A DNA stretch of 64,000 nucleotides from an uncultured Pseudomonadales bacterium. Its GTDB lineage: Bacteria; Patescibacteriota; Microgenomatia; UBA1400; UBA12028. The position numbers were made by a program, and so were the translations under genes. The number at the start of each line of letters is the position of its first letter. The stretch's first letter is position 1. The stretch is taken from the NCBI GenBank assembly GCA_964509365.1, contig CAZDWN010000001.1, forward strand, positions 11,074 through 75,073, in the 5' to 3' direction. The notes under the pieces were generated by a model, which saw nothing but the letters and a program-made list of their open reading frames with translations, was not told the origin of the DNA and searched no databases. Shown here piece after piece: positions 9,880 through 55,517 of this stretch.

Positions 9880-10200
9880 ATGGCATCAGATCAAAGCACT
9901 GTTGATTTTTTGAGTGAACAAATCGCGGGAGCGGGGAGGATCACCAGCCGCAAGATGTTTGGGGAGTATGCATTGTATTGCGATACCAAAGTCGTCGCGT
10001 TTGTCTGTGACTATGAGCTCTTTGTAAAACCTACCGACGCAGGAAAACAATACTTAAAGACTCCAGTCGAGCGACCGGCGTATCCGGGATCGAAGATGTA
10101 TTACTGGATCGATACCGAGCATTGGGATGATGAGGAGTGGATGAGTGAGCTTATCAAAGTCACTGCCGCCGCACTTCCACTTCCAAAACGGAAAAAATAA
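9880..10200 (+). CDS. TfoX/Sxy N-terminal domain protein
   Basis: MFGEYALYCDTKVVAFVCDYELFVKP matches the TfoX_N consensus (MFGgygly.dgk.Fa.v.dd.LylK). Confidence 0.55.
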   Translation: MASDQSTVDFLSEQIAGAGRITSRKMFGEYALYCDTKVVAFVCDYELFVKPTDAGKQYLKTPVERPAYPGSKMYYWIDTEHWDDEEWMSELIKVTAAALPLPKRKK

Positions 10201-11718
10201 TTACACTTCAAATTTTTTCTTCACGTAGGTGATGAAGCTTTCAGCAGACACGTGTTTACCCGTGAGCTTAAGTGACACTTCGCCCGAGGTGGACATCGCG
10301 CCACCAGCATGGACTTTGTCTCCGAGCCACGTGCGAATGATATCGAACTTGCCATTTCGCACATCATCATCAAAATCTGGATGCTCTTTGTGCAAAGTCT
10401 CTGAAAGTTGGACGGAGAGGAAACTCCCAAGTGAGTACGTCGGGAAATATCCGATCAATCCTTGGGACCAGTGAATATCCTGCAAGACTCCAAGCAAATC
10501 ATCGGGTACATCGACATCCAGATACTGTTTGTAGAGTGCATTCCATGCGTCACGAAGATCTTTGACTGCCAGCGTCCCTTCGATCATGCGCTGCTCCAGC
10601 TGCGCGCGGATCGCGATATGCAGATGATAGGTGACTTCATCAGCATCGACACGAATGAGGCTTGGTCTGATCACATTGACCTCGGCCCAAGCTTGGTGTG
10701 CCGTAGTACCCGCTAACTGTGTAGGGAATGCAGTCTGTAATACCGGGAAGAAATACTCCCAGAACTGTGGCGATTTGCCGATGATATTTTCAAAAAAACG
10801 AGATTGCGATTCGTGGATCACGAGTGAGTCTGCCATCCCGAGACGAGTACGCGCAATCTCAGGCGCGATGCCTTGCTCGTACATCCCGTGGCCACCTTCG
10901 TGAATCGACGAGAGGATGGTCGAGAGCGGATTGTCAGTGATGACGCGTGTCGTGAGACGCACATCACTGGTGGCGACTCCCATCGTAAATGGATGCGTCG
11001 AGATATCTTGTCGCCCAGCTTCCAGATCAAAGCCGAGCTCCGCAAGCAATGTCATCGTCACACTCCACAGCGTCTTCTCATCAAACTCTTGGTGAAAAAC
11101 TTTCTTGTCCCAGGTGCTCGTCTTCGCGCGTAGACTTTTGATCAGAGGAGTGAGGTGAACGATGAGATCTTCAAAGATCGCATCGACATGCTTGGCGCGA
11201 AGATCACGCTCATACTCTTCAAGCAATGCATCGTACGGGGAATCCGTAAACCCATAGGCGTAGGCAACTTCTTTTTTGAGCTCGACCATGCGCGTCAAGG
11301 CAGGGACAAATACCTCAAACTTGTTTTGATTTCTGGCGTGCTTCCATTCTTCCAGTCCTACTGATGATTGTTTACTGATCGCGGAGACGAGGCTGCTAGG
11401 TAATTTTTTTGCGAGTGTAAAGTCGCGAGTCATACACGTGATCAAGGCACGATCGTGAGCGGTAAACTGTCCAGGATTTCGCTGCAATTCTTCACTCAAT
11501 GTGGCGAGGAGCGTGCTTAGTTTTTGCGAGGTCGCTTTGCTATGGATGATCGTCGAGAGCGTCTCAAGCTGATGCGCTCGAGCCAGACCGCCTTTGTGAG
11601 GAAGATACGTCTCTTGATCCCACGCGAGAAGACCCGAGATTGACGAGAGATCTCGCATCATCTCACTGTAGGTGACAAGGTCGTTTATTTTTGGATTTGA
11701 TCGAGTGAAGACCGACAT
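10201..11718 (-). CDS. Carboxypeptidase Taq-like metallopeptidase, family M32
   Basis: HEGGH zinc motif plus M32 signatures HESQSRFFEN and IHWSQGLIGYFPTYSLGS. Confidence 0.85.
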   Translation of the reverse strand: MSVFTRSNPKINDLVTYSEMMRDLSSISGLLAWDQETYLPHKGGLARAHQLETLSTIIHSKATSQKLSTLLATLSEELQRNPGQFTAHDRALITCMTRDFTLAKKLPSSLVSAISKQSSVGLEEWKHARNQNKFEVFVPALTRMVELKKEVAYAYGFTDSPYDALLEEYERDLRAKHVDAIFEDLIVHLTPLIKSLRAKTSTWDKKVFHQEFDEKTLWSVTMTLLAELGFDLEAGRQDISTHPFTMGVATSDVRLTTRVITDNPLSTILSSIHEGGHGMYEQGIAPEIARTRLGMADSLVIHESQSRFFENIIGKSPQFWEYFFPVLQTAFPTQLAGTTAHQAWAEVNVIRPSLIRVDADEVTYHLHIAIRAQLEQRMIEGTLAVKDLRDAWNALYKQYLDVDVPDDLLGVLQDIHWSQGLIGYFPTYSLGSFLSVQLSETLHKEHPDFDDDVRNGKFDIIRTWLGDKVHAGGAMSTSGEVSLKLTGKHVSAESFITYVKKKFEV

Positions 11719-11801
11719 TCGCTCATTGTATCATGAGTACTTTATATACTCATATTCATTGACAGCACTGTTGAGGTCATATATGATGAAGACTTACTAC
11801 T

Positions 11802-13582: not shown

Positions 13583-16114
13583 ATGGATCAAGTATCGACA
13601 CCTCCAATTTCATCGCCGACAGTGGCGATGTCTCCTGCACCCGTTCAGGCTGCTCCGTCGACCCCTCCACCTCCAAAATTACCAGTCAAATCACCGACGC
13701 TCGTGCAACGAATCATCAAACAAAAAGGTCCAATTATCTGGGCTTGGATCGCCGCATATTGTATCGGCATGTTTGTCATGGGACTCATGATCCTCGTCCC
13801 CTCACTTCGTTCTATGTGGTCCGAACTGGGTGAAAAATCCGGTTCCGCTGCCGTGATCTTACTGTTTTTGACCATACTGCCAGGGACTATTCGCCGCATG
13901 GAGCTCAAAGGACCATTCATGCAACTGCAGCTCCTGATGATGGTGTTTCGCAGGCATCTTGGCATCTCGATGTTTTTGGCGGCGTTTGCGCATGCGATGT
14001 ATGCATACATCTTGCCAACGGTGGCGTTCAAACTACCACTGTTTCCGATGCTATCGTATGTCGTCTTTGGAGTGCTCGCACTAGCGTTGGCCGTACCGCT
14101 GTTTTTCACTTCGAATGATTACTTTGTGAAACTCTTAGGACCCTTGTGGCATCGCCTGCATACGTCAGTCTATGTGATCACCATCCTCACGCTCATCCAT
14201 TTGATCCTCTTGGGTGGAGTGCACCTGAGTACCGCACTTGCATTTTTTATCGTCTTTTTAGAAGGCGTCTCCTGGTCGACCAAATTTATCTCGACGAAAA
14301 AATATGCGCTCGCAGGGGCACTGATCGTGACGCTGATCCTCAGCAGTACTGCATATGCGACGTATATGATCACGCATCCACCAGCTCGACCAGTCAAAAA
14401 AGTGGTGACGGAAAATCTCATGGTGCCATTGAAAAAAAAAGGACAGGAATCATATACAGCAGCCATGGTCGCAAAACATACTAGCACTAGCGATTGCTGG
14501 ACGATCATCCGCGGCAAAATCTATTCGATCTCTGACTACATCAATGTCCATCCAGGAGGAGTAGAGACGATTCGAGAAGCATGTGGGATCGATTCTACCG
14601 AGCTCTTTGATACGAAAGGCGGACGAGACAGACCGCATACGCAATTTGCTGAAGATCTCTTGGTCAAATACTTGGTTGCTGCAGTTGGCGATCCTGTGCC
14701 AAATGCGAGTACATCACAAGAAGTACTAGAGAGCCCGATTGCCCAAGCTACTCCGATGCCCACACCAAGCTCTGCGATGCTGGATCCAAATCTCAAACTC
14801 ACCACAACACTCGTCGCGACTCACAACAAGACCTATGACTGCTGGCTCATCATCAATGCGAATGTCTATGATGTGACTGGCTACGTCCAGTATCACCCAG
14901 GGGGAACGCAGCAGATCTTGACGCGCTGTGGCACAGACGCGACTGATGCATTCAATACGAAGGGAGGAGTGGGGCGCACTCACAATGCGGACGCCGTGTC
15001 TATTCTCGCGAGTTTGCGCATCGGTGCGCTCAATCAAGTCGGTGTCCCATCGCCATTGCCGACGGCGACACCATCACCGACCCCAAAGCCGACTGTCTTG
15101 CCGACGCCGACGACACAGTCTGGGACCACACTCACGACGGCAATGGTCGCCACTCACAATACACAAAGCAACTGTTGGCTCATCATCAACAACAATGTCT
15201 ATGATGTCTCGCAGTACATCCCATATCACCCCGGTGGGACGCAGCAAATTCTCAATTTCTGCGGCAAAGAAAGTACCAGTGCGTTCAATACGAAAAACGG
15301 TGGCGGAGCACATACTTCGTATGCCCAGACACTTCTGGGTGGCTACAAAATCGGCGCGATCGGAGCTGTCGTGTCTGCGACACCGACTCCATCACCGACT
15401 CCTGTCCCAACTGCGACGCCAGTGCCGACAGCGACACCAAATCCCGAGACCGTCTATAGCGGAGCAACGATTGCCACTCACAATAGTATGTCGAGTTGCT
15501 GGCTCATCGTCAGTGGCAGTGTCTACGACGTCACGCAATATATCCCATACCACCCAGGAGGCACACAACAAATTCTTAACTTCTGTGGCCAGGAGAGTAC
15601 CAACGCATTTAATACAAAAAATGGAAGTGGATCGCACACCAATTACGCGATAACGCTCTTGGCAGGATACAAAATCGGAATCGCAAATATCACGACGACG
15701 CCGACACCAGTGCCGACCGCAGTGCCGACACCGACGCCGACGATCACTCCGACTGCCACACCTCGACCAACTGCTACTCCGACTCCGACCAAGACCCCGA
15801 GGCCCACCGCCACGCCGCGCCCGACAGCTACCCCGACGCCGACTCCGGCGCCGACAGCGACTCCAGCAGGGAACACCTACAGTGCTTCACAAGTCGCGAC
15901 ACACAACAATTCCAGTAGTTGCTGGCTCATCATCAATGGGAGTGTCTATGACGTGACGCAGTATGTGCCATTCCACCCGGGGGGAACGTCACGCATTCTC
16001 GTCGACTGCGGGAAAGAATCGTCGACCGATTTCAATACGCGTGGAGGGGGCAGTAGTCATTCAAATAGTGCCAAGTCATTGTTATCAGGAATGAAAATAG
16101 GAGTTCTCCAATGA
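13583..16114 (+). CDS. Membrane protein: ferric-reductase-like bis-heme TM domain fused to five tandem cytochrome b5-like heme-binding domains (Pro/Thr linkers)
   Basis: N-terminal ~230 aa form a polytopic TM region with two His pairs spaced 13 residues apart (HLGISMFLAAFAH and HTSVYVITILTLIH), as in FRD/MsrQ/NOX bis-heme domains. Five repeats follow, each with HNxxxxCWLIIxGxVYDVTxYxxxHPGG...CGxdsTxaFNTkxGxxxxH (cyt b5 HPGG motif plus second axial His), separated by PTPTP linkers. Confidence 0.7.
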   Translation: MDQVSTPPISSPTVAMSPAPVQAAPSTPPPPKLPVKSPTLVQRIIKQKGPIIWAWIAAYCIGMFVMGLMILVPSLRSMWSELGEKSGSAAVILLFLTILPGTIRRMELKGPFMQLQLLMMVFRRHLGISMFLAAFAHAMYAYILPTVAFKLPLFPMLSYVVFGVLALALAVPLFFTSNDYFVKLLGPLWHRLHTSVYVITILTLIHLILLGGVHLSTALAFFIVFLEGVSWSTKFISTKKYALAGALIVTLILSSTAYATYMITHPPARPVKKVVTENLMVPLKKKGQESYTAAMVAKHTSTSDCWTIIRGKIYSISDYINVHPGGVETIREACGIDSTELFDTKGGRDRPHTQFAEDLLVKYLVAAVGDPVPNASTSQEVLESPIAQATPMPTPSSAMLDPNLKLTTTLVATHNKTYDCWLIINANVYDVTGYVQYHPGGTQQILTRCGTDATDAFNTKGGVGRTHNADAVSILASLRIGALNQVGVPSPLPTATPSPTPKPTVLPTPTTQSGTTLTTAMVATHNTQSNCWLIINNNVYDVSQYIPYHPGGTQQILNFCGKESTSAFNTKNGGGAHTSYAQTLLGGYKIGAIGAVVSATPTPSPTPVPTATPVPTATPNPETVYSGATIATHNSMSSCWLIVSGSVYDVTQYIPYHPGGTQQILNFCGQESTNAFNTKNGSGSHTNYAITLLAGYKIGIANITTTPTPVPTAVPTPTPTITPTATPRPTATPTPTKTPRPTATPRPTATPTPTPAPTATPAGNTYSASQVATHNNSSSCWLIINGSVYDVTQYVPFHPGGTSRILVDCGKESSTDFNTRGGGSSHSNSAKSLLSGMKIGVLQ

Positions 16115-24287: not shown

Positions 24288-24944
24288 ATGATTCCCACCT
24301 TTAGAAATGACGCCTTGCTCCAAAATGCCCTCGTGCATCGTAGTGCTCTCAATGAACTGCACGGGTCTGTCTCCAATGAACGATTGGAATTTTTGGGCGA
24401 TGCAGTCCTTGAGCTCGTGACTACCGTATTTCTCTACGAGCGATTCCCAGGAGAGCAGGAAGGTGTCCTTACCAGTTACCGCGCTGCTCTGGTGAAGACG
24501 ACGACACTCGCGGTCGTAGCCAAAGAGCTGGGACTGGATCATTTACTCAAGATGAGTAAAGGGGAAGAGCGATCTGGAGGACGCGACAATATCGGCATGC
24601 TGGCTGATACTTTTGAAGCGGTCGTGGGTGCTCTGTACCTGGATCAAGGATACGACGCTGCACAGCAGTTTATCGAGACCTCACTGTTTCCGAAAGTGGA
24701 CGAGATCGTCTCCTCAAAACTCTACAAAGACTACAAAACCAATCTGCAAGAACTTGTGCAATCGCAAGGAAAATCCACTCCTGAGTACCGCACAATGGAA
24801 GAATCGGGCCCGGATCACCTCAAGGTGTTTACGGTCGAAGTGTTCGTGGATGGAGCTTCACTCGGATCAGGAAATGGAAAAAGCAAACAAGACGCGTCAC
24901 AGGAAGCTGCCAGAGTCGCTCTTGAGAAGATGGCGAACTTCTGA
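24288..24944 (+). CDS. rnc: Ribonuclease III
   Basis: Signature ERLEFLGDAVLEL. C-terminal dsRBD. Confidence 0.9.
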   Translation: MIPTFRNDALLQNALVHRSALNELHGSVSNERLEFLGDAVLELVTTVFLYERFPGEQEGVLTSYRAALVKTTTLAVVAKELGLDHLLKMSKGEERSGGRDNIGMLADTFEAVVGALYLDQGYDAAQQFIETSLFPKVDEIVSSKLYKDYKTNLQELVQSQGKSTPEYRTMEESGPDHLKVFTVEVFVDGASLGSGNGKSKQDASQEAARVALEKMANF

Positions 24945-25449: not shown

Positions 25450-25527
25450 CTTTCTCTCGTTTTCCTTTGATTTGTCATCCTGTCTGGCAACTGATCAAAT
25501 GATCCAATGAAAAATGACAAATTGTTA

Positions 25528-26394
25528 CTATTGTGAAGAGGTGAAGATAAGCCCCGAACTACTGGCCATGACTGGGATCGCAGCGTTGACACTGTCTGCC
25601 AATCGTTCTTCATTTGCCTTGGTGAGACGATCCAGGAGCGCGACTTCGCGAGGCGTCAATTGAACCACTGAAGTGACTTTGCCGCCAGTAAATGCGTTTT
25701 TCAAATAGAGTGAAGAGAGAGCGACTTCGGCAGAATACTCAGCACTCGTCGTCGCTTCACTCGCTTTGGCGTCCGTACTAAACTGGATCGAGTTGATCTG
25801 GATAAACGGCACGACATTATCAAGTGACTGGAAGAAGGTACTTAAGTTTGTAAATCCGCCAGACACATTCATTTTGAGAGGCAGAGTCGCCAGTAGGGGA
25901 GAAATCGGTGAAACGGTCGTCGCCGCTGCTGTGAGCTTGGCACTGCCAGTACCTAAGAGTCCAGGACTCACTTGAAAGTTTGCCACCGAGACGAGTGCAT
26001 TCGTCGCCAAGCGATCAATCGAGTAGAGCACTGGCAAAACTGGTTTTTCTACCGGCAGAGCGGCTGATAAGACATTGTTTGCGCGCGTGATATCCGTCGT
26101 ATCGAGCGCATCGAGACTCGAGATCAATCGTTGTTTGGTATCGAGCTCATCTTGCGCTGTCATCAATTCTTGTCTGATCGCCAAGATACTTTGGACCGCC
26201 GGGACCACGACGAGGACGAGCAGCACAATGATCGAAAGCCAGGCGATAAGCGAGATCGAAAAATACCGTCGGCGCTTTGCCAACGCGAGGATCGAGTCCA
26301 TCGAGAAGTCGAAGCCTGCTAATTTCTTTTCAAATGATACGGTCGTAGACATAGAATGCTTATAATCCGGCTGAATCTGTCGCAGTTGCTCCAC
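25528..26394 (-). CDS. pilO: Type IV pilus assembly protein PilO-like
   Basis: Single TM plus periplasmic/coiled-coil domain. Gene order pilM-pilN-pilO. Confidence 0.5.
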   Translation of the reverse strand: MEQLRQIQPDYKHSMSTTVSFEKKLAGFDFSMDSILALAKRRRYFSISLIAWLSIIVLLVLVVVPAVQSILAIRQELMTAQDELDTKQRLISSLDALDTTDITRANNVLSAALPVEKPVLPVLYSIDRLATNALVSVANFQVSPGLLGTGSAKLTAAATTVSPISPLLATLPLKMNVSGGFTNLSTFFQSLDNVVPFIQINSIQFSTDAKASEATTSAEYSAEVALSSLYLKNAFTGGKVTSVVQLTPREVALLDRLTKANEERLADSVNAAIPVMASSSGLIFTSSQ

Positions 26395-28857: not shown

Positions 28858-29430
28858 TCAGTTGTTCCGGAGCGTGATCGAAGCACTAAAGGGGATGGAG
28901 ACTTTGTCTCGTGCACTTCCAGCCGCATTTTTTTCAAGTGTAAAACTCATCGTGACGATGGGAGGTGAACCGTCCCAACCACTCTGGCCATACGTACTTG
29001 GACTGCACGAAAACTGTAAAGTCCCAGTCGATGGGATCGTCAGATCTGTGGGCGCCATATCGGAATCAGTTCCATTGATTGTTGCTTCGAGTTTCCCGGC
29101 TTTCGTCCAGTAGCTGGTGATCGTGCCATCTTGGTTTTCGACAGAGATCGACTTCATGTTGGAATTGCAGATAGCTGACGGAGTATCTTTGTTCGCGACG
29201 ATTTTGCGAGCATTGCGGATGGTAAACGTCATTTGGCTGAGGATTTGGCCACCAGCTTGTTTGGCGTACTCACCAGAAGCAGTTTTGCCTCCGCCGACAA
29301 ACGTCGTAAAAAAAAGTGACACTGCGGTCAGGAGCAAAATTGCTGCCAGTCCGATCACGACGACCAGTTCAATTAACGTGTATCCATTGTTTTTTTTGGA
29401 ATTTGGATTTTGGATTTTGGATTTTTTCAT
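28858..29430 (-). CDS. Prepilin-type N-terminal cleavage/methylation domain protein (minor pilin)
   Basis: Class III signal peptide NNGYTLIELVVVIGLAAILL. Confidence 0.75.
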   Translation of the reverse strand: MKKSKIQNPNSKKNNGYTLIELVVVIGLAAILLLTAVSLFFTTFVGGGKTASGEYAKQAGGQILSQMTFTIRNARKIVANKDTPSAICNSNMKSISVENQDGTITSYWTKAGKLEATINGTDSDMAPTDLTIPSTGTLQFSCSPSTYGQSGWDGSPPIVTMSFTLEKNAAGSARDKVSIPFSASITLRNN

Positions 29431-33707: not shown

Positions 33708-34907
33708 TTAGAACTGATTGGTCAAATTATATATTGGCATGATGATCGCAATGATCAAAAACCCGACCCCAAGTCCTAATACGATCATGATAAGAGGTTC
33801 CAGAGCGGTCGTCAATCCTTTGACGGCGTGCTCGGACTCTGACTCGAAGTAACTCGACAGTTTGAGGAGGACCTCATCCATCTTTCCTGTCTCTTCACCG
33901 ACGGAGATCATCTGCGACATCAGGACAGGGAACTCCTGACGGTGTGCGACACTGGATGCCAAGGTCTGACCTTTTTCCACTTCCTTATATATTTTTTGAA
34001 GAGCTTGCTTAAAGACCATGTTCTCGACCGCATCGGTCGCGATTTCTAGAGCGAGCAGTAGGGAGATACCAGCACTGACGAGCAGAGAGAGCGTACGCGT
34101 GAGCTCGACGAGCGTCGTCTTTGCGCGAATATCTCCAAAGACCGGCATCTTGAGCAGGAGTTCATCGATCTTCAGTCTGCCTTGCGGAGTCTTGTAGTAC
34201 GCACGCACTCCCAAGAATATACCGACGGCACCGATGACAAAGACGTACCAAAATTGCGACATGATATTGGACATCCCGATGAGGATCTTGGTAGGTCCAG
34301 GTAATTCTGCGCCAAAATCTTTATACATTGATGTCATCTTTGGCACGACAAACACCATCATGATAAAACCGACGACGACCATCGCGGTGAGCACGATCGC
34401 AGGGTAGACGAGCGCGCCTTTGGTTTTCGCTGAGAATTCTTTTTCTTTTTCGAGGGTATCTGCGAGACGATTGAGGACTTTCTCCAAGACACCAGCAGAC
34501 TCACCCGCTTTGATGAGCGCAATGTAGACGTCACTAAACGGTGGTTGATGTTTTTCGATCGCTTTGGCGAGCGTCGATCCACCTTCGACATCACGTCTGA
34601 CTGCTTCGATCACTTTTTGCATCGATGGTTTCGCCTGCACCATGAGGATGCCAAGAGCTTCAGTCAATGGAAGTCCAGCGGTGATCATCGTCGAGAGCTG
34701 GCGCGTGAAGTTCACCACATCTGTTGAGGAGATATTGGAGAACTGCAGCATGTTCGTGAGACTGCGATCTTTATATTGCGTCAGGGAGATGACAAAGAGT
34801 CCGCGCTCACGCAAGATCACGCTCGCGTCCTTGATGCTTTGCGCTTCGACTTTACCGGTAACCGCTTCGTTTTTCTGCGTGCGGGCTTTGTAAGAATAAG
34901 TAAGCAT
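33708..34907 (-). CDS. pilC: Type IV pilus assembly platform protein PilC (GspF family)
   Basis: Two GspF repeats, three TM segments, ~400 aa. Confidence 0.85.
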   Translation of the reverse strand: MLTYSYKARTQKNEAVTGKVEAQSIKDASVILRERGLFVISLTQYKDRSLTNMLQFSNISSTDVVNFTRQLSTMITAGLPLTEALGILMVQAKPSMQKVIEAVRRDVEGGSTLAKAIEKHQPPFSDVYIALIKAGESAGVLEKVLNRLADTLEKEKEFSAKTKGALVYPAIVLTAMVVVGFIMMVFVVPKMTSMYKDFGAELPGPTKILIGMSNIMSQFWYVFVIGAVGIFLGVRAYYKTPQGRLKIDELLLKMPVFGDIRAKTTLVELTRTLSLLVSAGISLLLALEIATDAVENMVFKQALQKIYKEVEKGQTLASSVAHRQEFPVLMSQMISVGEETGKMDEVLLKLSSYFESESEHAVKGLTTALEPLIMIVLGLGVGFLIIAIIMPIYNLTNQF

Positions 34908-34993
34908 ACATAGGTGTAGAAAGTAGTATGTAGCGAGTAGTAAGGGTTTTTGTATTTCTTCCTTGCTACTTTCTACTTACTGCTTACTACTTT
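34908..34993. repeat. Heptanucleotide (GTAGNNN)n inverted-arm repeat element, pilC-pilT intergenic
   Basis: gtagaaa gtagtat gtagcga gtagtaa ... ctacttt ctactta ctgctta ctac. A purine-rich arm is followed by its pyrimidine-rich complement. Confidence 0.6.
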
Positions 34994-36076
34994 TCACCGC
35001 TTTACTAAGCGAGCTAATTGGTCTGGCCACTGAGCGACAGCTTCTGCATCTTGATACGAGATTTGACCTTGGTTCACGAGTTTGGCGAGACTGGCTTCCA
35101 GTGAGATCATGCCCATGTCTGAAGATGTTGAGATCACGTTGTCCAGCTGGAACGTTTTTCCTTCACGCACGATATTGCGGACAGCTCCATTTGCGAGCAG
35201 GACTTCGACAGCCGGGATGCGATCATCTTGCAAGGTATGCATCAATCGTTGTGAGACGACAGCTTGGAGCGTGTTCGCAAGCTGCATTCTGACTTGACCT
35301 TGCTGATGCTCTGGGAAGACGTCGATGATACGATCAATGGTTTGTGATGCAGAGTTGGTGTGGAGTGTGGCAAAGACGAGGTGTCCCGTCTCCGCGACAG
35401 TGAGTGCGGCTGCGATCGTCTCGTAGTCTCGCATCTCGCCGACGAGCACGACATCTGGATCCTCGCGCAGTGCAGATTTGAGGGCGACTTCCCAGGAGTG
35501 CGTATCCGCATGCAGTTCACGCTGTGAGATGATACTTTTCTTGCGCGTGTAAATAAACTCGATTGGATCCTCGATGGTGAGGATGTGTTCACCACGATTG
35601 GTGTTGATCTCGTCGATGATCGCGGCGAGGGACGATGATTTACCTTGACCTGTTGGGCCAGTAAAGAGGATAAAGCCTTGCTTCATCGTCGTGAATTGGT
35701 GGAGGATCGGAGGCAATCGCAATTCCTCGATCGTACGGATCTTTGCAGGGATGAGACGCAGAGCAGCTGCAAGCGTCCCTTTGTGGTAGTAGGCGTTGAC
35801 GCGGAATCTACCAATGTCTTTAAACTGAAATGAAAAGTCGACTTCTTTATTGACAAGCAATTGATCCTTAAATTCTTGCGTGAGCAGACCGAAGATCAAT
35901 GTTTGGGAGTGAGCGGCATCGAGGACATCTTCTCCTTCGATCGGCACCAGCTGGCCATTCACGCGCAGACAGGGTGGGGAACCGACGATCAAATGCAAAT
36001 CAGACGCACCTTGCGTGGCACACAGTGAAAGCATCTCTTCAATAGTCATAGCGTTTCCTTTATATCCATTGCTCAT
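34994..36076 (-). CDS. pilT: Twitching motility retraction ATPase PilT
   Basis: ASDLHL N-terminal motif, Walker A GPTGQGKSS, ~360 aa PilT size. Confidence 0.85.
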   Translation of the reverse strand: MSNGYKGNAMTIEEMLSLCATQGASDLHLIVGSPPCLRVNGQLVPIEGEDVLDAAHSQTLIFGLLTQEFKDQLLVNKEVDFSFQFKDIGRFRVNAYYHKGTLAAALRLIPAKIRTIEELRLPPILHQFTTMKQGFILFTGPTGQGKSSSLAAIIDEINTNRGEHILTIEDPIEFIYTRKKSIISQRELHADTHSWEVALKSALREDPDVVLVGEMRDYETIAAALTVAETGHLVFATLHTNSASQTIDRIIDVFPEHQQGQVRMQLANTLQAVVSQRLMHTLQDDRIPAVEVLLANGAVRNIVREGKTFQLDNVISTSSDMGMISLEASLAKLVNQGQISYQDAEAVAQWPDQLARLVKR

Positions 36077-36159
36077 TTAATACTTACACATATTCCTGTC
36101 AGTGTACAGTTGCTAGAGAAGTAGTAAGCAAACTACATACTACTTACTGCTTGCTACTT
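36077..36159. repeat. Heptanucleotide inverted-arm repeat element, pilT-pilB intergenic
   Basis: agaagtagtaagcaaa ... ctacata ctactta ctgcttg ctacttc. Same family as 34908-34993. Confidence 0.6.
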
Positions 36160-37953
36160 CTAAACCTGCGCCACACGCAAGACTTCTTCGATTGTCGTGA
36201 TCCCATCGAGCGCTTTGAGATACCCGTCTTGTTTCATGAGCATCATGCCGTCTTCCAGCCCTTGTTTCTCGATATCGTTAGCGGTCTGATGTTCCAGCAC
36301 GAGTCGTGCGATCTTGTCATTCATGGTGATGACCTCAAAGATACCGATACGACCAGAATATCCCGTATCATCATTGGATTTTGATTTGACACCTCGATAC
36401 AGCTTCATTGGTTTACCATCCATTCCTTTTGATTTGGCCCACCCATCATAGAGCGCTCCTAGCACAGTGCGGATATCTTTTTCGACCGCAGGCTCTGGAG
36501 TGTATTCTTCTTTTTCATCTGCGATTTTTCGCACGACACGTTGTGCCATGACGAGCGTGATGGATGATGCAAGCAAGAATGGTTCCATTCCCATATCGAG
36601 GAGACGAGGGAGTGCACCGGCGGCGGAGTTCGTGTGCAACGTTGAGAAGACGAGGTGACCCGTGAGAGATGCTTGCACCGCAAGTTCCGCAGTCTCGCTA
36701 TCACGGATTTCTCCCACCATGATGATATTTGGATCTTGGCGCAAAAAAGATCGGAGTCCTGATGCAAATGTCAGTCCGGCTTGCGGGTTGATTTGGACTT
36801 GGTTGATACCTTCCATTTGATACTCGACAGGATCTTCGAGTGTCATGATGTTCACTTTTGGTGAGTTGATCTTATGGAGGAGCGAGTAGAGCGTCGATGT
36901 TTTTCCTGACCCCGTTGGACCAGTGACCAGGACAATTCCGTGAGGGACGTTTGAGGCAGTCTCGAGCCTGGTAAGGGCAGTACCTCGCAGTCCCAGTTCA
37001 GACAAAGTAGGGATTGCACCGGATTTTTTCAACAAACGCATGACGATCTTCTCGCCGTGCACCGTCGGCAGCGTCGAGATACGCAAATCGACTTCATCGG
37101 CTTGTGTACGAAAGGTAAAGCGACCGTCTTGTGGCACACGTTTCTCATCGATCTTCAAATCAGAGAGGATCTTAATACGAGAGACGAGTGCTGGATGGAC
37201 ACTTTTGGGGAGCACGAGTTTTTCCGTCAAGATACCGTCGATACGATAGCGGACGCGTGTCCTGGTCTCGAGTGGTTCGATATGGACGTCAGACGCGCGA
37301 GACTTGACGGCAAACGCGAGGATGGTCTCGACGATTTTGGCGATTGGCGCTTCGCGAATGATCTCATTACTATTGGCTTGGCTGATATCGATCTCGACTC
37401 CACTCGCTACGAGTGTTTGGCCTTGATCCGTTTCTTTGAGTGCCGCAGTGACTTCACTCGTCAGACTCTGCGCGTACCGTTCACTGATCGCTCGATCGAC
37501 TTCATACTCCGAGCCGATACTGACGATCACTTTGCGACCCGTTTTTTTCTGTACGAAGTCCAAAGCAAGCAAGTCACTCGGATTGATCATCGCGATCGAC
37601 ACTGAGTGATCTTCATCATTGAGGGCATAGGGGATCAGTCTGTAGCGTCGCGCCACACTTTCGGGGATGATGGAGAGCGCTTGCGGCGCTATCCCCGTCT
37701 CAGAGAGTTTGACGTAGGGGACGTTGTACGCTTTCGCTTTCGCTTGTGTGAGGACTTCTTCGTTGACGAGATTTTTATCTTTGATCAGTTCATCGATCGT
37801 TTTATTGGAGTTGATGTGCTCAAGTGCGAGATCATCATATTGCGCTTGGGTGATATTTCCTTGGGTGAGGAGGATCTGCGCAGCGTTCGTCGCGGTAAAA
37901 CCGACGTTTGAGAATTGCGATGAATCAGTAGCTTGTGACTGGGCAGAGTCCAT
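36160..37953 (-). CDS. pilB: Type IV pilus assembly ATPase PilB (GspE family)
   Basis: Walker A GPTGSGKTST. GspE N-terminal domain. ~600 aa. Confidence 0.9.
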   Translation of the reverse strand: MDSAQSQATDSSQFSNVGFTATNAAQILLTQGNITQAQYDDLALEHINSNKTIDELIKDKNLVNEEVLTQAKAKAYNVPYVKLSETGIAPQALSIIPESVARRYRLIPYALNDEDHSVSIAMINPSDLLALDFVQKKTGRKVIVSIGSEYEVDRAISERYAQSLTSEVTAALKETDQGQTLVASGVEIDISQANSNEIIREAPIAKIVETILAFAVKSRASDVHIEPLETRTRVRYRIDGILTEKLVLPKSVHPALVSRIKILSDLKIDEKRVPQDGRFTFRTQADEVDLRISTLPTVHGEKIVMRLLKKSGAIPTLSELGLRGTALTRLETASNVPHGIVLVTGPTGSGKTSTLYSLLHKINSPKVNIMTLEDPVEYQMEGINQVQINPQAGLTFASGLRSFLRQDPNIIMVGEIRDSETAELAVQASLTGHLVFSTLHTNSAAGALPRLLDMGMEPFLLASSITLVMAQRVVRKIADEKEEYTPEPAVEKDIRTVLGALYDGWAKSKGMDGKPMKLYRGVKSKSNDDTGYSGRIGIFEVITMNDKIARLVLEHQTANDIEKQGLEDGMMLMKQDGYLKALDGITTIEEVLRVAQV

Positions 37954-43387: not shown

Positions 43388-46063
43388 ATGGCAGATACCA
43401 CCGAAAAACCATCCGAAGAAGCAGAGATCACCCCAGTCGTGGTCGACCCGACAGCCGATTATTCGACCAGATTTGGGACGATTCGTCCGACCTCGATCAT
43501 CACTGAGATGCAAAAGTCATATCTTGACTACGCCATGAGTGTGATCGTCGCTCGTGCACTTCCGGATGTCCGCGATGGGTTAAAGCCGGTGCATCGCCGT
43601 ATTTTGTTTGCCATGAAGGAAATGGGCATCCGCTGGAACACTCCATACAAGAAGTCTGCTCGTATCGTCGGAGAAGTCTTGGGTAAGTATCACCCACATG
43701 GTGATGCTCCAGTATACGAAGCAATGGTTCGTTTGGCGCAAGATTTCTCCATGCGCTATCCACTCGTGGATGGTCAGGGAAACTACGGAAGTATAGACGG
43801 CGATTCCGCAGCCGCCATGCGTTACACCGAAGCGCGTATGGCCAAGATCAGTGAAGAGCTGCTGGCTGATTTGGAAAAAGAAACAGTCTCGTTTGTCGAT
43901 AACTTTGACGGATCTTTACAAGAGCCGAGTGTCTTACCAGGAAAACTTCCAAACCTCTTATTGATGGGATCAGAAGGTATCGCTGTCGGTATGGCGACCA
44001 AGATCCCTCCACACAACTTGACTGAAGTCTGTAATGCCATTCTCAAAGTAATTGAAATGGGAGAGGCAAAACAAGAGATAAGAGACAAGAGACAAGAGAC
44101 AGAAGAATTGAATGTCGAGACCGGTGAAGCCAAACTCATCGCTGGACACTTTGACTCCGAAGCCACGATAGACGATATTTGTGAATTCGTCCAAGGTCCA
44201 GACTTCCCGACAGCGGGCACCATCTATGATTTCAAAGAGATCAAAGAAGCGTACGCGACTGGTCGCGGTCGTATCTTGATCCGAGGCAAAGCTGAGATCG
44301 TCGAAAATAAAAATGGAAAATTCCAGATCATTGTCACCGAGTTGCCATATCAGGTCAATAAAGCCAAACTGGTCGCCAAGATTGCACAATTGGCCAGAGA
44401 CAAAAAGTTGGTAGGGATTGCGGATCTTCGTGATGAGTCAGACCGCGACGGTATGCGCATCGCCTTTGATCTGAAGAAAGATGCTCGTCCAAAGTCAGTG
44501 CTCAACGCGCTCTACAAGATGACCGAGCTGCAGACGACGTTCCCGATGAATACGGTGGCGATCAACTCCGAAGGTACGCCACAGCTCATGAACGTCAAGA
44601 CGATCATGATGGAATACATTCGTCATCGTCAGACGGTGGTCGTGAAGCGAGCGCAATTTGACCTCAAAGCCGCTCGAGCGCGAGCGCATATCCTCGAAGG
44701 ATTGCTCATTGCTCTTTCAAACTTGGATGCCGTCATCAAGACCATTCGCGAATCCAAAGATTCTGACGAAGCAAAGAAGAACTTGATGGAACGATTCAAA
44801 CTTTCAGAGATCCAGTCAGTAGCCATCCTCGATATGCAGCTACGAAAGCTTGCAGCACTTGAGCGATTGAAGATCGAAGAAGAGTACAAAGCACTCATGA
44901 AGTTCATCGAAGAATTATTGACACTTTTGAAGAGTCCAAAGAAAATCTTGGAGACGATTGGCACCGAAGTGAAGCAAATGATCGAGACGCATGGCGATGC
45001 CCGTCGGACCAAAGTCCACAAAGGCAAGCTTGGAGAGATCAATGAAGAAGATTTGATCCCAAATGAACCGACGATCATCACCGTCACCGAGACTGGATAT
45101 ATCAAGCGACTCAATCCATCTGCATATCGCACCCAGCATCGCGGAGGCAAGGGCGTCAGTGGAATGACGACAAAAGATGAAGATGCAGTTTCAGAACTCC
45201 TGACTTGTGATACGCATGATAGTTTGCTGTTGTTTACCAATAAAGGTCGCGTGTTTAAGAACAAAGTCTATGAATTGCCAGAGTCTTCACGCATAGCCAA
45301 AGGGCAAGCGATCGTGAACTTGGTGAACTTGACTGCCGATGAGCACATCCAAGCGATCTTGACACTTAATGAGAAGAGTCCAGCAGGCAAATACATTTGT
45401 CTTGCGACTCTCAAAGGGATGATCAAGAAGACCCCACTTGCGGACTTCTCAAATATCCGTACCTCAGGCATCATCGCCATCATTTTGAAAGATAATGACG
45501 AGTTAGTCTTTGGTCGCATCACCACTGGTGAAGATCACATCATGATCGTAACCAACGAAGGCAAGTCGATCCGCTTCCACGAAAAAGAAGTAAAGAGTAG
45601 TAATCGCGATACTCAAGGAGTGAAGGGCGTCGAACTCAAAGGAACTGACTATGTCGTCGGCGTCGAGAGTTTCCCACCAGAACTGGCGATCCCTGAAGAC
45701 AAACGTAAGAAATTCTTCCGCCATGTCTTGGTCGTCACTGAAAAAGGAATGGGCAAGCAAACTGAGTTGACTGAGTATCCACTGCAAAAGCGAGCGGGCT
45801 TAGGAGTCAAAGTGAGTGAGATTGCTGACAAGACTGGGAAAGTTGCCTGTGCTAAGATCGTCGACGAGACAATTGATGATGTCGTTTTGACTACAAAATC
45901 AGCGCAAGTGATTAAGTTGCCACTTCGGAACATTCCTGTACTCAAACGTCCGACTCAAGGAGTGATCTTGATGCGCCTCGACAAGGGTGATTTGATTACT
46001 GCCTGCGCGACGACCAAAAAGCCAGTTGAGGAAGAAATTGCGGAAGGCAGTCTGGAAGTTTAG
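43388..46063 (+). CDS. gyrA: DNA gyrase subunit A
   Basis: [25 protein letters not shown] with active-site Tyr region. C-terminal beta-pinwheel repeats. Confidence 0.95.
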
Positions 46064-49849: not shown

Positions 49850-50584
49850 ACCGGCCTCGTATACGCCTCAAAATCGGCTTCAAAAGAGGGTAGACGGCTA
49901 GTATATCCTTTGACTATTTAGGCGGATTGGAAGGGCAAATCCCTATTTTCATTTTCGTGTGAAATCTATGCAATCTATTCGGTGCGACAAAAAATGTATC
50001 AAAACGAAAAAGTGACTACAGACGGGGTTTGAGTGTAAGTTCATTCAAGCGACAGAGGAGACGATGAAACAGAAATGAAATCGCACGATGGACGATCACG
50101 AAAGACATCAGCATCACATCTATCCACTTCTCCAGCTTTCTTGATACATGTCGCAAAAGGTATATTGTGCGACATTACCGATTGAGAGATCCACGCCCTC
50201 AAAACGAGAGCCGTGTGCAGTGATCCTCTACGTCGCGCTGATCGTTTTCTTCTCTCCATTGTATGCGACAGTGTAGCTCTCTTCCATACGGTGAGCACGA
50301 TATTCCTGGCTCACCTAAGCTCGCGATTCATAGCGTATTCAGCTCACCAGAGGTCACATCTGGAAATGCACCCACTCCAGGCTAGTGCTCCATTTATCCG
50401 TGCTACCCTGTATTCACGTCTTCGGGTTTTCTTCCCAAGACCCGAACTTGCGATGTTCTTGAGTACATTCTTACTTATCCACATTTATCCTCTCGAGTGT
50501 ACGACTTATAATATTATTTCACATGTGTTACAGTTTGATATAGTTCATCCCCAATGACGTGAGACTCCCCATGTCGCTTTTTAT

Positions 50585-50650
50585 ACCACTTCCCCCCTGC
50601 TCTACCTTGCTACTTCCTACTTTCTGCTTGCTGCTTCTCGAGGAAGATCC
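50585..50650. repeat. Heptanucleotide repeat element (cttgctacttcctactttctgcttgctgcttct)
   Basis: Pyrimidine-rich arm of the GTAGNNN family. Near-identical core to the tgt insertion. Confidence 0.5.
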
Positions 50651-50705: not shown

Positions 50706-51473
50706 TCACTTCCAATTGATGAGGAATAGCAAAACCAGTGAGACGAATGCCGTCACCCAGATGTACTCTCGTAGTGTTTGCGCAAACAATCGATCGATGA
50801 TGTAGTTTTGCACGATGCCAAATCCGACGTAGACGAGCGCCGTCAAAAAGAGCGACACAGTCCAGAGGCCCACAGGCAAAAACGAAAGCGCAAAGCCTGT
50901 CTCAGCGAGAATAAACGTAAAAAAGGTGCTGATATACACGACTTTTTTGGTAATTTTCGCTTCAAGTCCAATTGACCAGGTAGCGCAAAAGACTGGTACG
51001 AATAGAGCCAGATAAATGGCTACAAAATTCAATACCGGATGAAGACGAAGTGAGAAAATAAAGTTAAACAGAAACAGTGAGAGCACAAACAGAAATACCG
51101 AGGACACTGCATGTGCCGCTCGCAAAAGTTGGATTGTTTTGATTTTGCCGAACGCAAAAATGTTTGACGAGAGATACAGCGCATACATGCCGATTCCGAA
51201 GAGCGTGATGATCGCGATGCGAGAAAAAATATTTCCTGGAAGCAAAAAATAAAACAGCGAAACCGCGAGCGCATAAAACGCTGGGAATGGCACGATGGTG
51301 AGCCATTCGACTCCATTGATCGACGGTGCGAGTGCCCACGCACTCATACTATATGTCGCCAAGAAAAACAGTCCGATGGCAAATGGACGAATATCCACAG
51401 ACACGAGTTGCGTTCCTAAGAGTCCGAGTGAAAGTAAAATTGACGAGATAATAAAACGAACGCGTTTTCTCAT
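50706..51473 (-). CDS. polytopic integral membrane protein, unknown function
   Basis: About 8 predicted TM helices. ATGA overlap with the yebC-like gene. Confidence 0.5.
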   Translation of the reverse strand: MRKRVRFIISSILLSLGLLGTQLVSVDIRPFAIGLFFLATYSMSAWALAPSINGVEWLTIVPFPAFYALAVSLFYFLLPGNIFSRIAIITLFGIGMYALYLSSNIFAFGKIKTIQLLRAAHAVSSVFLFVLSLFLFNFIFSLRLHPVLNFVAIYLALFVPVFCATWSIGLEAKITKKVVYISTFFTFILAETGFALSFLPVGLWTVSLFLTALVYVGFGIVQNYIIDRLFAQTLREYIWVTAFVSLVLLFLINWK

Positions 51474-52030
51474 ACGGTAGCATTATGCCACACGCCGTCG
51501 ACATCGTCTTGTGCTTCGATCGCTTGGATCAGATTTTCGATTTGCTCAAATTGCGTTTGCTCGACTTGGAGGGGGATCGAGACTGTATATTCTCCATCGG
51601 TGAGAGTGAAGAGATAGCTCGCGGCTCCTGGCCCTGCGAGACTTCCATTATGTTGTGAAAAAATACTGCGGATTTCTCCAGCCGTCCGCTGCTTATTGTC
51701 AGTACGGACTTGGATCAAGATCCCGACTCCATTCGGGCCATATCCTTCGTAGATGATCTCCTCCAAGCTTGCCCCGCTATCGCTCTTCCCTGCTCCTCTT
51801 TTGATCGCGCGCGCTACGTTCTCATTGGGCATGTTTACAGCCCGAGCCTTATCCATAGCGAGGCGCAGTGAGGGGTTTTCATCAGGATTCGTGATGCCAC
51901 TTTTCTTTACTGCTGAGATGATGAGTCGCGCGACGGCGGTGAACTCTTTGCTGCGTTTTTGATCTTGGACGCCTTTGCGTTTGGCGATGTTACTAGAGTG
52001 TGAGTGTCCGGACATGTTTCTAAGTAGCAA
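51470..52030 (-). CDS. yebC: YebC/PmpR-family transcriptional regulator (short, 186 aa)
   Basis: N-terminus MSGHSHSSNIAKRKG...KEFTAVARLI matches YebC (MAGHSKWANIKHRK). Shorter than the usual ~240 aa. Confidence 0.65.
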   Translation of the reverse strand: MLLRNMSGHSHSSNIAKRKGVQDQKRSKEFTAVARLIISAVKKSGITNPDENPSLRLAMDKARAVNMPNENVARAIKRGAGKSDSGASLEEIIYEGYGPNGVGILIQVRTDNKQRTAGEIRSIFSQHNGSLAGPGAASYLFTLTDGEYTVSIPLQVEQTQFEQIENLIQAIEAQDDVDGVWHNATV

Positions 52031-52110
52031 GTAGAAAGTAGAGAGCAGTAGGGGAAGACAAACTTTCCTTACTCCTTACTACATACTACTTACTACTTCC
52101 TCCTAGAATT
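52020..52110. repeat. Heptanucleotide inverted-arm repeat element
   Basis: aagtagc aagtaga aagtaga gagcagt ... tactcct tactaca tactact tactact. Confidence 0.6.
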
Positions 52111-53970: not shown

Positions 53971-55209
53971 CTAGTCACTAACCACTAGGGACTTTCTCAT
54001 CTGCTCGCACAATCTGATCATAAATCTCACGTTGTGGATACTAGCGAGTCGGTAGTACGAGAGTTCTTTGGTCTTGGCAAGATGGTGGAGATACCCACGA
54101 CTGTATCCATGTGTGCAGGTGTAGCAGTCACAACCCTCCTGGATCACTGACGTATCTGTCTCGAATCGCTTATTCCCAATCAGTAATCTGTTTTTGGAAA
54201 ATTCTGAATTCAGCTTCCACTCTCCACTCTCCACTCGCAACTCGCAACTATACAAGGCTCCATTCCGTGCCAGACGCGTGGGCGCGACGCAGTCAAACAT
54301 GTCAAATCCATACGAGATCGCATCGATAATATCTTGTGGATTACTCCCAAGTCCCATCGCATACCGAGGTTTGTCTTGTGGAAGGAGACTTTCGATCCAA
54401 CTCATCACTTCCCCGGTACCTTGCATGTTGTATCCGATGGTCTCGCCACCGATAGCGACGCCGTCAAATCCCATGCCGCTGATCACTCTGGCAGACTCTT
54501 CACGCATCGACCGATGGAGTGCACCTTGCACGATCCCAAATAGCGCTTGGTAGTTTCCCTGGCTCGACGACTTCCCTGCTCGCTCCCATTCTTCTTTGCT
54601 TTGCCGGCTCCATCGATGGGTGCGATCGAGCGCTTGACGGGCATACGTTTCGTCAGCTCCGTCTGGAGTACATTCATCAAATGCCATGATGATATCTGCG
54701 CCGATGTCTCGTTGGATTTGGATGGATTTTTCAGGAGTAAAAAAATGTTTTGTCCCATCAAGATGTGAAGTGAACTCCACGCCTTCGTCAGTGATCTTCG
54801 CCGGAGCCATCGATTGAATTGTATTCTTGCTACTTGCTGCTTGCTGCTTACTACTCAGTTGCTTCCCAAGCGAAAAAACTTGGAATCCTCCACTGTCCGT
54901 GAGCACCGGCCGATCCCATTTCATCATTGTTTGCACTCCTCCGAGCTCATTGACGATCTTCTCCCCAGGTCGAAGATACAGATGATACGTGTTTGCAAGC
55001 ATGATCGGAGCGCCAGTGGCTTTCACGTCATCCGCATCGAGCGCTTTGACACTTGCCTGCGTCCCGACCGGCATGAAGATCGGAGTCGGCACATCACCGT
55101 GCGGAGTATGCATGACCCCAGCGCGGGCTTTACCCTGAGCCTGCCGAAGGGCCTTATTTTTTGTAGCTACCAGTTCAAAAGAAAAAGCATTCATTCCTGT
55201 ATTGTACAA
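53971..55209 (-). CDS. tgt: Queuine tRNA-ribosyltransferase (tRNA-guanine transglycosylase) with in-frame low-complexity insertion
   Basis: TIM-barrel Tgt motifs (VMHTPHGDVPTPIFMPVGT, LANTYHLYLRPG, DCVAPTR). C-terminal zinc site CDCYTCTH. 412 aa against the usual ~375. Inserted SSKQQAASSKN is encoded by heptad repeats. Confidence 0.85.
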   Translation of the reverse strand: MYNTGMNAFSFELVATKNKALRQAQGKARAGVMHTPHGDVPTPIFMPVGTQASVKALDADDVKATGAPIMLANTYHLYLRPGEKIVNELGGVQTMMKWDRPVLTDSGGFQVFSLGKQLSSKQQAASSKNTIQSMAPAKITDEGVEFTSHLDGTKHFFTPEKSIQIQRDIGADIIMAFDECTPDGADETYARQALDRTHRWSRQSKEEWERAGKSSSQGNYQALFGIVQGALHRSMREESARVISGMGFDGVAIGGETIGYNMQGTGEVMSWIESLLPQDKPRYAMGLGSNPQDIIDAISYGFDMFDCVAPTRLARNGALYSCELRVESGEWKLNSEFSKNRLLIGNKRFETDTSVIQEGCDCYTCTHGYSRGYLHHLAKTKELSYYRLASIHNVRFMIRLCEQMRKSLVVSD

Positions 55210-55517
55210 TCAAATTACTATGAAAAAGAAAATGCTCATTGGCGTGTCTATTTTTGCGCTTCTGTTCGTTGTTGGAGTTACAGTCTGGCGAGGTGCAGTC
55301 GTCGTCGATTGTTTCCCCTATTTGGGATCGATTCAAGAGCAACGGGACCGTGAAGACCAACGGTTTCAACGATTCAGTGCAGGAGAGAAAGTAAGAGCAA
55401 AGATATTTGGGACGCGTTGCGGTTCCTACTGAAGAGCTTCGACGGATACATTACTCTTCAATATTTCTGATACCTATTTTGTCTCTTCCCTGGTGTTGTG
55501 GTTCTCACAGTTAAACT

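Follow-up and report, generated by a model that had tools for sequence, protein, structure and literature searches.

The gene pilT, which encodes the retraction ATPase of type IV pili, is flanked on both sides by small elements built of tandem 7-nt units in a 64-kb stretch of DNA (contig CAZDWN010000001.1, positions 11,074 to 75,073; hereafter the window) from an uncultured bacterium assigned to the Patescibacteria (Microgenomates group). These two elements, designated IG1 and IG2, are probably members of a dispersed, lineage-specific heptanucleotide-repeat family with the purine-strand consensus (AAGYAGN)n, whose effects on neighboring genes are incidental and which is not dedicated to pilT. 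The family occupies five loci in the window, namely IG1, IG2, and exactly three further sites, with none elsewhere in the 64 kb; copies were counted in the window only.

34909–34993, unstranded: IG1, 85 nt inserted behind the stop codon of pilT and ahead of the start codon of pilC (sequence, period-7 call by Tandem Repeats Finder [TRF], alignment to loci L081, L083, and L085)
36113–36162, unstranded: IG2, an insertion of ~50 nt at the pilB stop (sequence, inverted arms, TRF period 7, alignment to relatives)
50600–50639, minus strand: E3, a one-armed array, GCAGCAA GCAGAAA GTAGGAA GTAGCAA GGTAGAG (pattern search and cluster scan)
52020–52106, unstranded: E4, a two-armed copy (pattern search, TRF period 7)
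54826–54856, minus strand: E5, a one-armed array in frame within tgt, GAGTAGT AAGCAGC AAGCAGC AAGTAGC AAG, encoding SSKQQAASSK

According to the original prediction, which was made from the sequence of this stretch, both gaps that adjoin pilT consist almost entirely of tandem GTAGNNN units followed by complementary units. The arrays are real and strongly enriched over shuffled controls. Across the window, a search for GTAGN3GTAGN3GTAG with at most one mismatch returned 13 matches; the expectation from 100 dinucleotide-shuffled sequences was 0.04, and none of these reached 13. A scan for clustered heptads found seven arms, against 0.14 in shuffles. TRF called period-7 arrays at 34962–34992, 36132–36159, 52022–52042, 52068–52098, and 54826–54855. 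The predicted layout of a purine arm and a complementary pyrimidine arm was also borne out. Specifically, the pilT–pilC gap (34908–34993) reads, on the plus strand, GTAGAAA GTAGTAT GTAGCGA GTAGTAA G, a 24-nt spacer, and CTACTTT CTACTTA CTGCTTA CTACTT. The purine arm of IG1 comprises four GTAGNNN units (34916–34944) and the pyrimidine arm 4.4 CTACTTN units (34962–34992), with arms of 25 nt that are 80 per cent complementary. In IG2, the purine arm is short (36117–36130) and the pyrimidine arm longer (36133–36159; CTACATA CTACTTA CTGCTTG CTACTT); AGAAGTAGTAAGCA pairs with TGCTTGCTACTTCT, which lies inside the four-unit pyrimidine array, over 14 nt at 93 per cent complementarity. As to the extent of the arrays, heptads make up ~70 per cent of the pilT–pilC gap, and in the pilB–pilT gap they are confined to the pilB-proximal half. 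The remainder of the latter gap (36050–36112) is an ancestral spacer that carries the Shine–Dalgarno sequence (SD) of pilT and aligns to relatives.

The five copies resemble each other beyond the unit. The variant 13-mer AAGTAGTATGTAG is common to IG1, IG2, and E4, the 17-mer ACTACATACTACTTACT to IG2 and E4, and 9- to 17-mers are shared across the five loci. Because IG1, IG2, and E4 share variant 13- to 17-mers, the copies derive from a common source and did not grow independently. Their contexts are an operon interior, a convergent gap, a divergent gap, and in-frame coding sequence; only E5 is not intergenic, and two of the five adjoin stop codons. IG2 overlaps and supplies the stop codon of pilB (TAG, 36160–36162), which is TAA in relatives. 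E3 lies between convergent genes (an open reading frame [ORF] at 50213–50557 on the plus strand and a DUF5656 gene at 50706–51473 on the minus strand). E4 ends 4 nt before the start of yebC/TACO1 (ATG at 52015, minus strand) in a divergent gap shared with a TPR gene, and E5 sits in a Tgt loop of hypervariable length (0 to ~27 residues among 12 homologs).

The genes that matter for the comparisons below were identified with Pfam, in agreement with the names pilC, pilT, and pilB assigned earlier:

33708–34907, minus strand: pilC, platform protein (T2SSF)
34994–36076, minus strand: pilT, retraction ATPase (T2SSE), as the longest ORF; 34994–36049 after re-assignment of the start, 351 aa
36160–37953, minus strand: pilB, assembly ATPase (T2SSE and MshEN)
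24288–24944, plus strand: rnc, RNase III (Ribonucleas_3_3, Ribonuclease_3, and dsrm)

The three pil genes are part of a cluster for type IV pili that also encodes prepilins and a prepilin peptidase and includes pilM-like genes. The PilT protein is 64 per cent identical to that of the best species-representative genome, and closer proteins are 95, 87, and 85 per cent identical. We judged the insertion status of both elements by alignment to the three nearest relatives (loci L081, L083, and L085). In all three, a single nucleotide separates the stop codon of pilT from the start codon of pilC (TGA-T-ATG), and the window carries 85 nt extra exactly there. The pilB–pilT spacers of these relatives are 36–72 nt long, are free of heptads, and align only to 36050–36112 of the window, so that the ~50-nt repeat block is extra as well. 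Because the nearest relatives lack both elements at the orthologous junctions, the alignments show that IG1 and IG2 are recent, lineage-specific insertions (85 and ~50 nt). No period-7 array was found in the syntenic pil region (21 kb) of the 87 per cent relative or in the 8-kb contig of the 95 per cent relative, and comparison of the IG1 and IG2 junctions with the relatives revealed neither a target-site duplication nor common termini. Absence from the orthologous loci of close relatives is an outcome that the original prediction itself had named as speaking against it. A role specific to pilT is not borne out by a family that also occupies three unrelated sites, one of them inside tgt, and whose two pilT-flanking copies are missing from all three relatives.

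The length of the pilB–pilT gap follows from the choice of the pilT start codon. Since most of the closest PilT homologs are 351 aa long, the three nearest relatives begin MTIEE/D, and the ATG at 36049 (MTIEEML...) is preceded by the SD AAAGGAAAC, this ATG is most likely the true start, in place of the longest-ORF start at 36076. The pilB–pilT gap would therefore measure 110 nt, not 83. On the other side of the gene, the pilT stop codon is TGA (34994–34996), and the pilC start codon (34905–34907) has no SD. Many genes of the window likewise have no SD, and some look as if they had no leader at all, so that leaderless mRNAs are probably frequent in the source genome. TACAAT or CATAAT hexamers are located 6–8 nt upstream of an ATG that has no SD at 55195–55215 (tgt), 11719–11740 (an M32 peptidase gene), and 51474–51490.

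Heptad architecture is not restricted to the AAGYAGN unit. In a comparison sample that joined the window to 80 related pil loci, TRF called 127 arrays of period 7, whereas periods 6 and 8 yielded 59 and 58 arrays, respectively. Intergenic sequence, which makes up 8 per cent of the total, holds 48 per cent of the period-7 arrays, and a further 14 per cent fall within 90 nt of the 5′ end of an ORF, inside the reading frame. The unit varies by genome (for example, AAAATGT, AGTCAGG, GAATTTA, AAGATAC, and TTCGAAA), while the 7-nt architecture is constant. A complementary partner arm at most 150 nt away accompanies 15–26 of 86 arrays, compared with 1–5 in a control of reversed sequence. In 10 of the 80 related loci, a heptad array directly adjoins pilT. 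One of these, L009 (Gottesmanbacteria), carries two heptad (AAAATNN/NNATTTT) hairpin elements of 99 nt that are 100 per cent identical and in direct orientation (9900–9998 and 11182–11280). They occupy the pilB–pilT and pilT–pilC gaps and thereby reproduce the layout of the window with unrelated sequence; such identical copies could mediate deletion of pilT by recombination. Together with the adjacent sequence, the T-rich arm of the L009 element looks like a promoter from which pilT would be transcribed without a leader (TATTAT, 7 nt, ATG). In two related Riflebacteria-like genomes with pilT DNA 86 per cent identical, (TAAGATA)5 immediately follows the pilT stop (L070, 11081–11119; L072, 4945–4978), with an inverted partner arm in only one of them. 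Heptad arrays at a pilT junction therefore also occur outside Patescibacteria.

Arrays of other units are present within coding sequences of the window as well. In gyrA, (ACAAGAG)x4.4 (44071–44101, plus strand) encodes a 6-residue in-frame insertion where GyrA of L083, which is 88 per cent identical, aligns as GST------KKTAE. In tgt, (GAGTTGC)2(GAGTGGA)3 (54216–54249, minus strand) encodes another variable loop besides that of E5. This loop ranges from 0 to ~27 residues among 12 homologs, and in two of them it contains KIQNPNS-like peptides, which suggest AAAATCC-type arrays.

The best reading of AAGYAGN is that it represents a further family of intergenic heptameric simple sequence repeats (SSRs), a kind that is known but poorly understood and whose closest representatives are the short tandemly repeated repetitive (STRR) sequences and the Xanthomonas GGGAATC repeats. 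Heptameric SSRs are over-represented in many bacteria. In Xanthomonas, 89–93 per cent of GGGAATC arrays are intergenic, the mean distance to the preceding ORF is 28 nt, and each genome has 70–75 inverted pairs, and the same class includes the GGGGA(T/C)T arrays of Nostoc and the STRR heptamers of Calothrix and Nostoc (PMC4692102). The elements described here share with these repeats the head-to-tail 7-nt units, the over-representation of period 7 relative to neighboring periods, and the recurrence of one unit family at many loci. They are also mostly intergenic near the end of the preceding ORF, frequently form inverted pairs able to fold into stem-loops, and include some intragenic copies. 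Unlike the Xanthomonas and Nostoc SSRs, AAGYAGN is not G-rich, has no G-quadruplex potential, and resides in a reduced Patescibacteria genome; its units in the window are degenerate (GYAGNNN) instead of near-perfect, and its arrays are short, with three to five units per arm. Moreover, 90 per cent of the repeats of Xanthomonas campestris are at conserved positions in X. axonopodis (PMC4692102), whereas the window copies are recent and missing from relatives with 85–95 per cent identical PilT.

We hypothesize that such arrays arise by replication slippage that favors 7-nt units, a bias that one hypothesis ties to how much DNA the active site of the polymerase holds (cited in PMC4692102). They may then spread via copying or recombination, gain a second, inverted arm through template switching, and persist where insertion is tolerated, namely in very short intergenic gaps and in the coding sequence of leader peptides and surface loops. 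If AAGYAGN is indeed a dispersed repeat family with incidental effects, elements of this type would account for unusual spacers, lengthened leader peptides, and minor in-frame insertions seen in candidate-phyla genomes, and their annotation as pilT regulators would be unwarranted. The still unexplained bias of bacterial tandem repeats toward 7 nt would be extended to a further phylum, one whose genomes are very small, and insertions that are dated, in that they are present here and absent at 95 per cent PilT identity, could help to trace how arrays originate and arms become inverted. In-frame colonization of leader peptides and enzyme loops would be a modest extension of the known repeat kind.

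To characterize the predicted hairpins, we computed RNA folds for the transcribed (minus) strand, with z-scores relative to 200 shuffles each:

IG1 (101-nt RNA): −25.7 kcal/mol, z = −3.4, with 0 of 200 shuffles as stable
E4 (108-nt RNA): −37.5 kcal/mol, z = −4.5, with 0 of 200 shuffles as stable
IG2: −19.4 kcal/mol, z = −0.9, with 30 of 200 shuffles as stable

The long imperfect hairpin that had been proposed for both pilT gaps is thus supported at IG1 and not at IG2, whose fold is no better than those of shuffled sequences. No stable fold was obtained for the one-armed copies E3 and E5. When transcribed, the two-armed copies would form long imperfect hairpins of ~27–35 bp. Complementarity between arms is ~79 per cent at consensus positions of the unit and ~50 per cent at variable positions, a pattern that two opposed arrays of one unit would produce automatically and that bears no sign of compensatory maintenance of pairing. 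Promoter scans detected no sigma-70-like promoter in either pilT gap, and neither gap contains an intrinsic terminator, which would combine a GC-rich stem with a U-tract; the hairpins are followed by CACCUAUGU and CAACUGUAC. Promoter and terminator scans around E3 and E4 returned nothing that involves the elements. In the whole window, Rfam (at the gathering threshold) matched one tRNA-Leu only, with no match at the elements. We also considered a split SD joined by the hairpin (GGAGG is present at the 5′ foot of E4) and dropped it, given the many genes without an SD and the several that look leaderless.

At the pilT–pilC junction, the 85-nt IG1 would break the TGA-N-ATG translational coupling of the two genes that is present in relatives, and its hairpin would end 6 nt before the pilC start, which lacks an SD; for pilus biology, this would mean that a hairpin has split a translationally coupled pilT–pilC pair. 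Such hairpins are plausible RNase III substrates or 3′-exonuclease barriers and may shift pilB:pilT:pilC ratios. Cleavage by RNase III or end-protection is plausible because rnc is encoded at 24288–24944, and its product would be the candidate trans-acting nuclease for long hairpins. Among the roles suggested for the elements, that of a structured RNA processing site within the pil polycistron is the most plausible functional consequence, as a candidate role only. Any effect on expression is more likely to be a side-effect of the insertion than a conserved regulatory design.

The original prediction also proposed phase variation by slippage, by analogy with the 7-bp repeats at the HMW adhesin genes of Haemophilus influenzae. 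We measured the longest in-register run with s[i] = s[i+7], which is 4–6 nt in the pilT-flanking arms, that is, less than one unit, and 4–10 nt in the GTAG family overall; no perfect tandem unit is present in any pilT-flanking arm. We read the degenerate units as decayed arrays. Because the in-register identity is shorter than one unit, phase variation at IG1 and IG2 is very unlikely, and the gaps offer no sigma-70-like promoter whose spacing could be altered. Relatives differ in the presence or absence of the whole element and not in unit number. Look-ups with the exact PilT, PilC, and Tgt sequences of the window matched no indexed contig, and no conspecific sequence was found. Ten strain-level contigs that encode a Curtissbacteria PilT (P0103) contain no substantial heptad arrays and hence provided no comparison of copy number.

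A better candidate for phase variation, judged by its sequence, is located in a prepilin leader of the same cluster. At the start of the prepilin gene 28858–29430, an (AAAATCC)n tract (29394–29425, minus strand) includes 3.4 perfect units in a 24-nt perfect stretch. It encodes most of the leader peptide, MKKSKIQNPNSKKNNG|YTLIEL, compared with MKNG|YTLLEL in the ortholog of the 87 per cent relative, so that the leader is extended by 11–12 residues; a slip of 7 nt in either direction would shift the reading frame. Similar heptad tracts occur in prepilin leaders of L011 (10.9 units), L064, and L017, and a heptad array is present at most 110 nt upstream in 12 of 185 prepilin starts.

Several explanations other than incidental insertion of a dispersed repeat deserve consideration. 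The elements might be selected post-transcriptional regulators that set PilB/PilT/PilC stoichiometry through RNase III cleavage or 3′-exonuclease protection, comparable to hairpins of repetitive extragenic palindromic (REP), Correia, and hmw type. There is a precedent in the 5′ untranslated region (UTR) of hmw1A in H. influenzae, where an (ATCTTTC)n arm is part of a hairpin processed by RNase III (PMC12721329). As in hmw1A, a heptamer arm pairs with a complementary arm to form a 5′-UTR or intercistronic hairpin upstream of a gene for a surface structure, in a host that encodes RNase III. The hmw1A repeats, however, are perfect, number at least 11 units, vary in number, face a non-repeat G-rich right arm, and have an experimentally demonstrated role in regulation, whereas the units in the window are degenerate and both arms are heptad arrays. 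The comparison with HMW is apt as an analogy, through the heptamer-arm RNase III hairpin, and does not extend to membership, given the in-register identity of 4–6 nt. Selection would also account for the stable hairpins at IG1 and E4 in a window that encodes RNase III, and for the recurrence of unrelated heptad hairpins at pilT boundaries (on both sides in L009, with a heptad array next to pilT at nine further loci, of which L006 and L024 have two adjacent arrays). Two points here weigh against purely incidental insertion: very stable hairpins at two sites could reflect selection, and the frequency of arrays that adjoin pilT is, by our estimate, roughly twice the rate of average intergenic gaps, a weak excess that is compatible with some selective benefit at the junction. 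Yet the elements are missing from three nearest relatives that have the same operon, the IG2 hairpin is no better than shuffles, the arm complementarity is explained by the shared unit consensus alone, and the family is also found in coding sequence and between convergent genes. We consider a selected regulator unlikely, although worth keeping in mind. A miniature mobile element of REP or MITE (miniature inverted-repeat transposable element) type, mobilized in trans by, for example, a RAYT (REP-associated tyrosine transposase) or another HUH enzyme that reads GTAG, would explain the GYAG core, the discrete insertions with shared 13- to 17-mers, and the two identical 99-nt copies between unrelated flanks in L009. 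GTAG/GYAG is a conserved tag of REPs, which combine one unpaired GTAG tag with a 5- to 13-bp stem and a short loop and are thought to be mobilized by RAYTs (PMC3733652). Like REPs and bacterial interspersed mosaic elements (BIMEs), the window copies are small, palindromic, intergenic GTAG/GYAG repeats, often inverted dimers, that lie mostly downstream of ORFs and in some cases in genes and are probably transcribed as RNA hairpins. Unlike in REPs, GTAG recurs every 7 nt inside the stem, no unit-level palindrome or per-unit stem-loop stands behind a single unpaired tag, the arms measure 14–35 nt and the spacers 17–24 nt, and IG1 alone permits a drawing that places GTAG at the base of its stem. 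Conserved termini and target-site duplications are lacking, element lengths and unit orders all differ, and Pfam identified no Y1/HUH, RAYT, or IS200-like transposase among ~60 ORFs scanned in the window. The coexistence of unrelated heptad families in the same genome points instead to a general mutational process, and mobilization in trans seems rather improbable. Correia elements and other MITEs are short inverted-arm insertions between co-transcribed genes whose RNase III-sensitive hairpins alter the expression of flanking genes; Correia elements are bounded by terminal inverted repeats of 26 nt, duplicate a TA target, and are conserved in sequence over their full length. The window elements show none of these three features and have a heptad substructure.

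The regular spacing of a conserved 4-nt core, which is strongly non-random, could also mean that the units are arrayed target sites of a regulator that binds DNA or RNA and recognizes GTAG/UAG every 7 nt, in the manner of iterons or of the trp RNA-binding attenuation protein (TRAP), and that controls the pil genes and a small regulon. Sister lineages with the same architecture have unrelated unit sequences, so that the binder would have to co-evolve in each lineage; one site encodes a protein loop and another lies between convergent genes, close relatives with the same genes lack the elements, and the 7-nt period is out of helical phase. The spacers between TRAP sites are 2–3 nt, shorter than the period observed here. 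We rejected TRAP-like (G/U)AG binding on the grounds of spacing and lineage-specific unit sequences, iterons for want of a replication context, and CRISPR for want of spacers. The arrays of regulator sites that had been suggested find nothing in their support where the unit sequence changes completely between related genomes, and we regard them as highly improbable. Still harder to credit is a phase-variable contingency locus at which slipped-strand changes in unit number tune pilT, pilC, or pilB, as at the hmw promoters of H. influenzae. In favor of it, the unit matches that of hmw in size, and pilT and pilC each have an element upstream of the start codon. Against it, the pilT-flanking arrays have no perfect tandem unit and no promoter-like site, are not within coding frames, and differ among relatives as whole elements. 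Finally, it is doubtful, though conceivable, that Patescibacteria carry lineage-specific, actively spreading families of heptad-array hairpins that make up a class of their own among minute DNA elements, either mobile or hypermutable, and serve as a contingency and regulatory layer. Under that interpretation, such families would have repeatedly colonized type IV pilus operon junctions, prepilin leader codons, and surface loops of Tgt and GyrA; intercistronic hairpins would act through RNase III processing, and arrays in minor-pilin leaders would be 7-nt frame switches.

In a scan of metagenomes, (AAGNAGN)x4 was found in 120 stretches from very diverse organisms (GC content of 28–71 per cent), sometimes with inverted partner arrays, and no close relative of the AAGYAGN family was identified among them. 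The literature that could be searched yielded no account of heptanucleotide elements from Patescibacteria.

Other small repeats and insertions are present in the window. Directly after the stop codon of the last gene of the pil cluster (25528–26394, minus strand), (CAAATGA)x3.7 occupies positions 25496–25522. Near the N-terminus of tgt (55132–55155, minus strand), the 24-nt insertion GCCCTTCGGCAGGCTCAGGGTAAA encodes ALRQAQGK and is missing from all 11 of the 11 aligned homologs; its sequence looks like a different small, partly palindromic micro-insertion. Elsewhere, the ORF at 13583–16114 (plus strand) encodes a protein of 843 aa in which five heme-binding domains of cytochrome b5-like type follow a membrane domain of ferric-reductase type, which is unusual for a reduced Patescibacteria genome.

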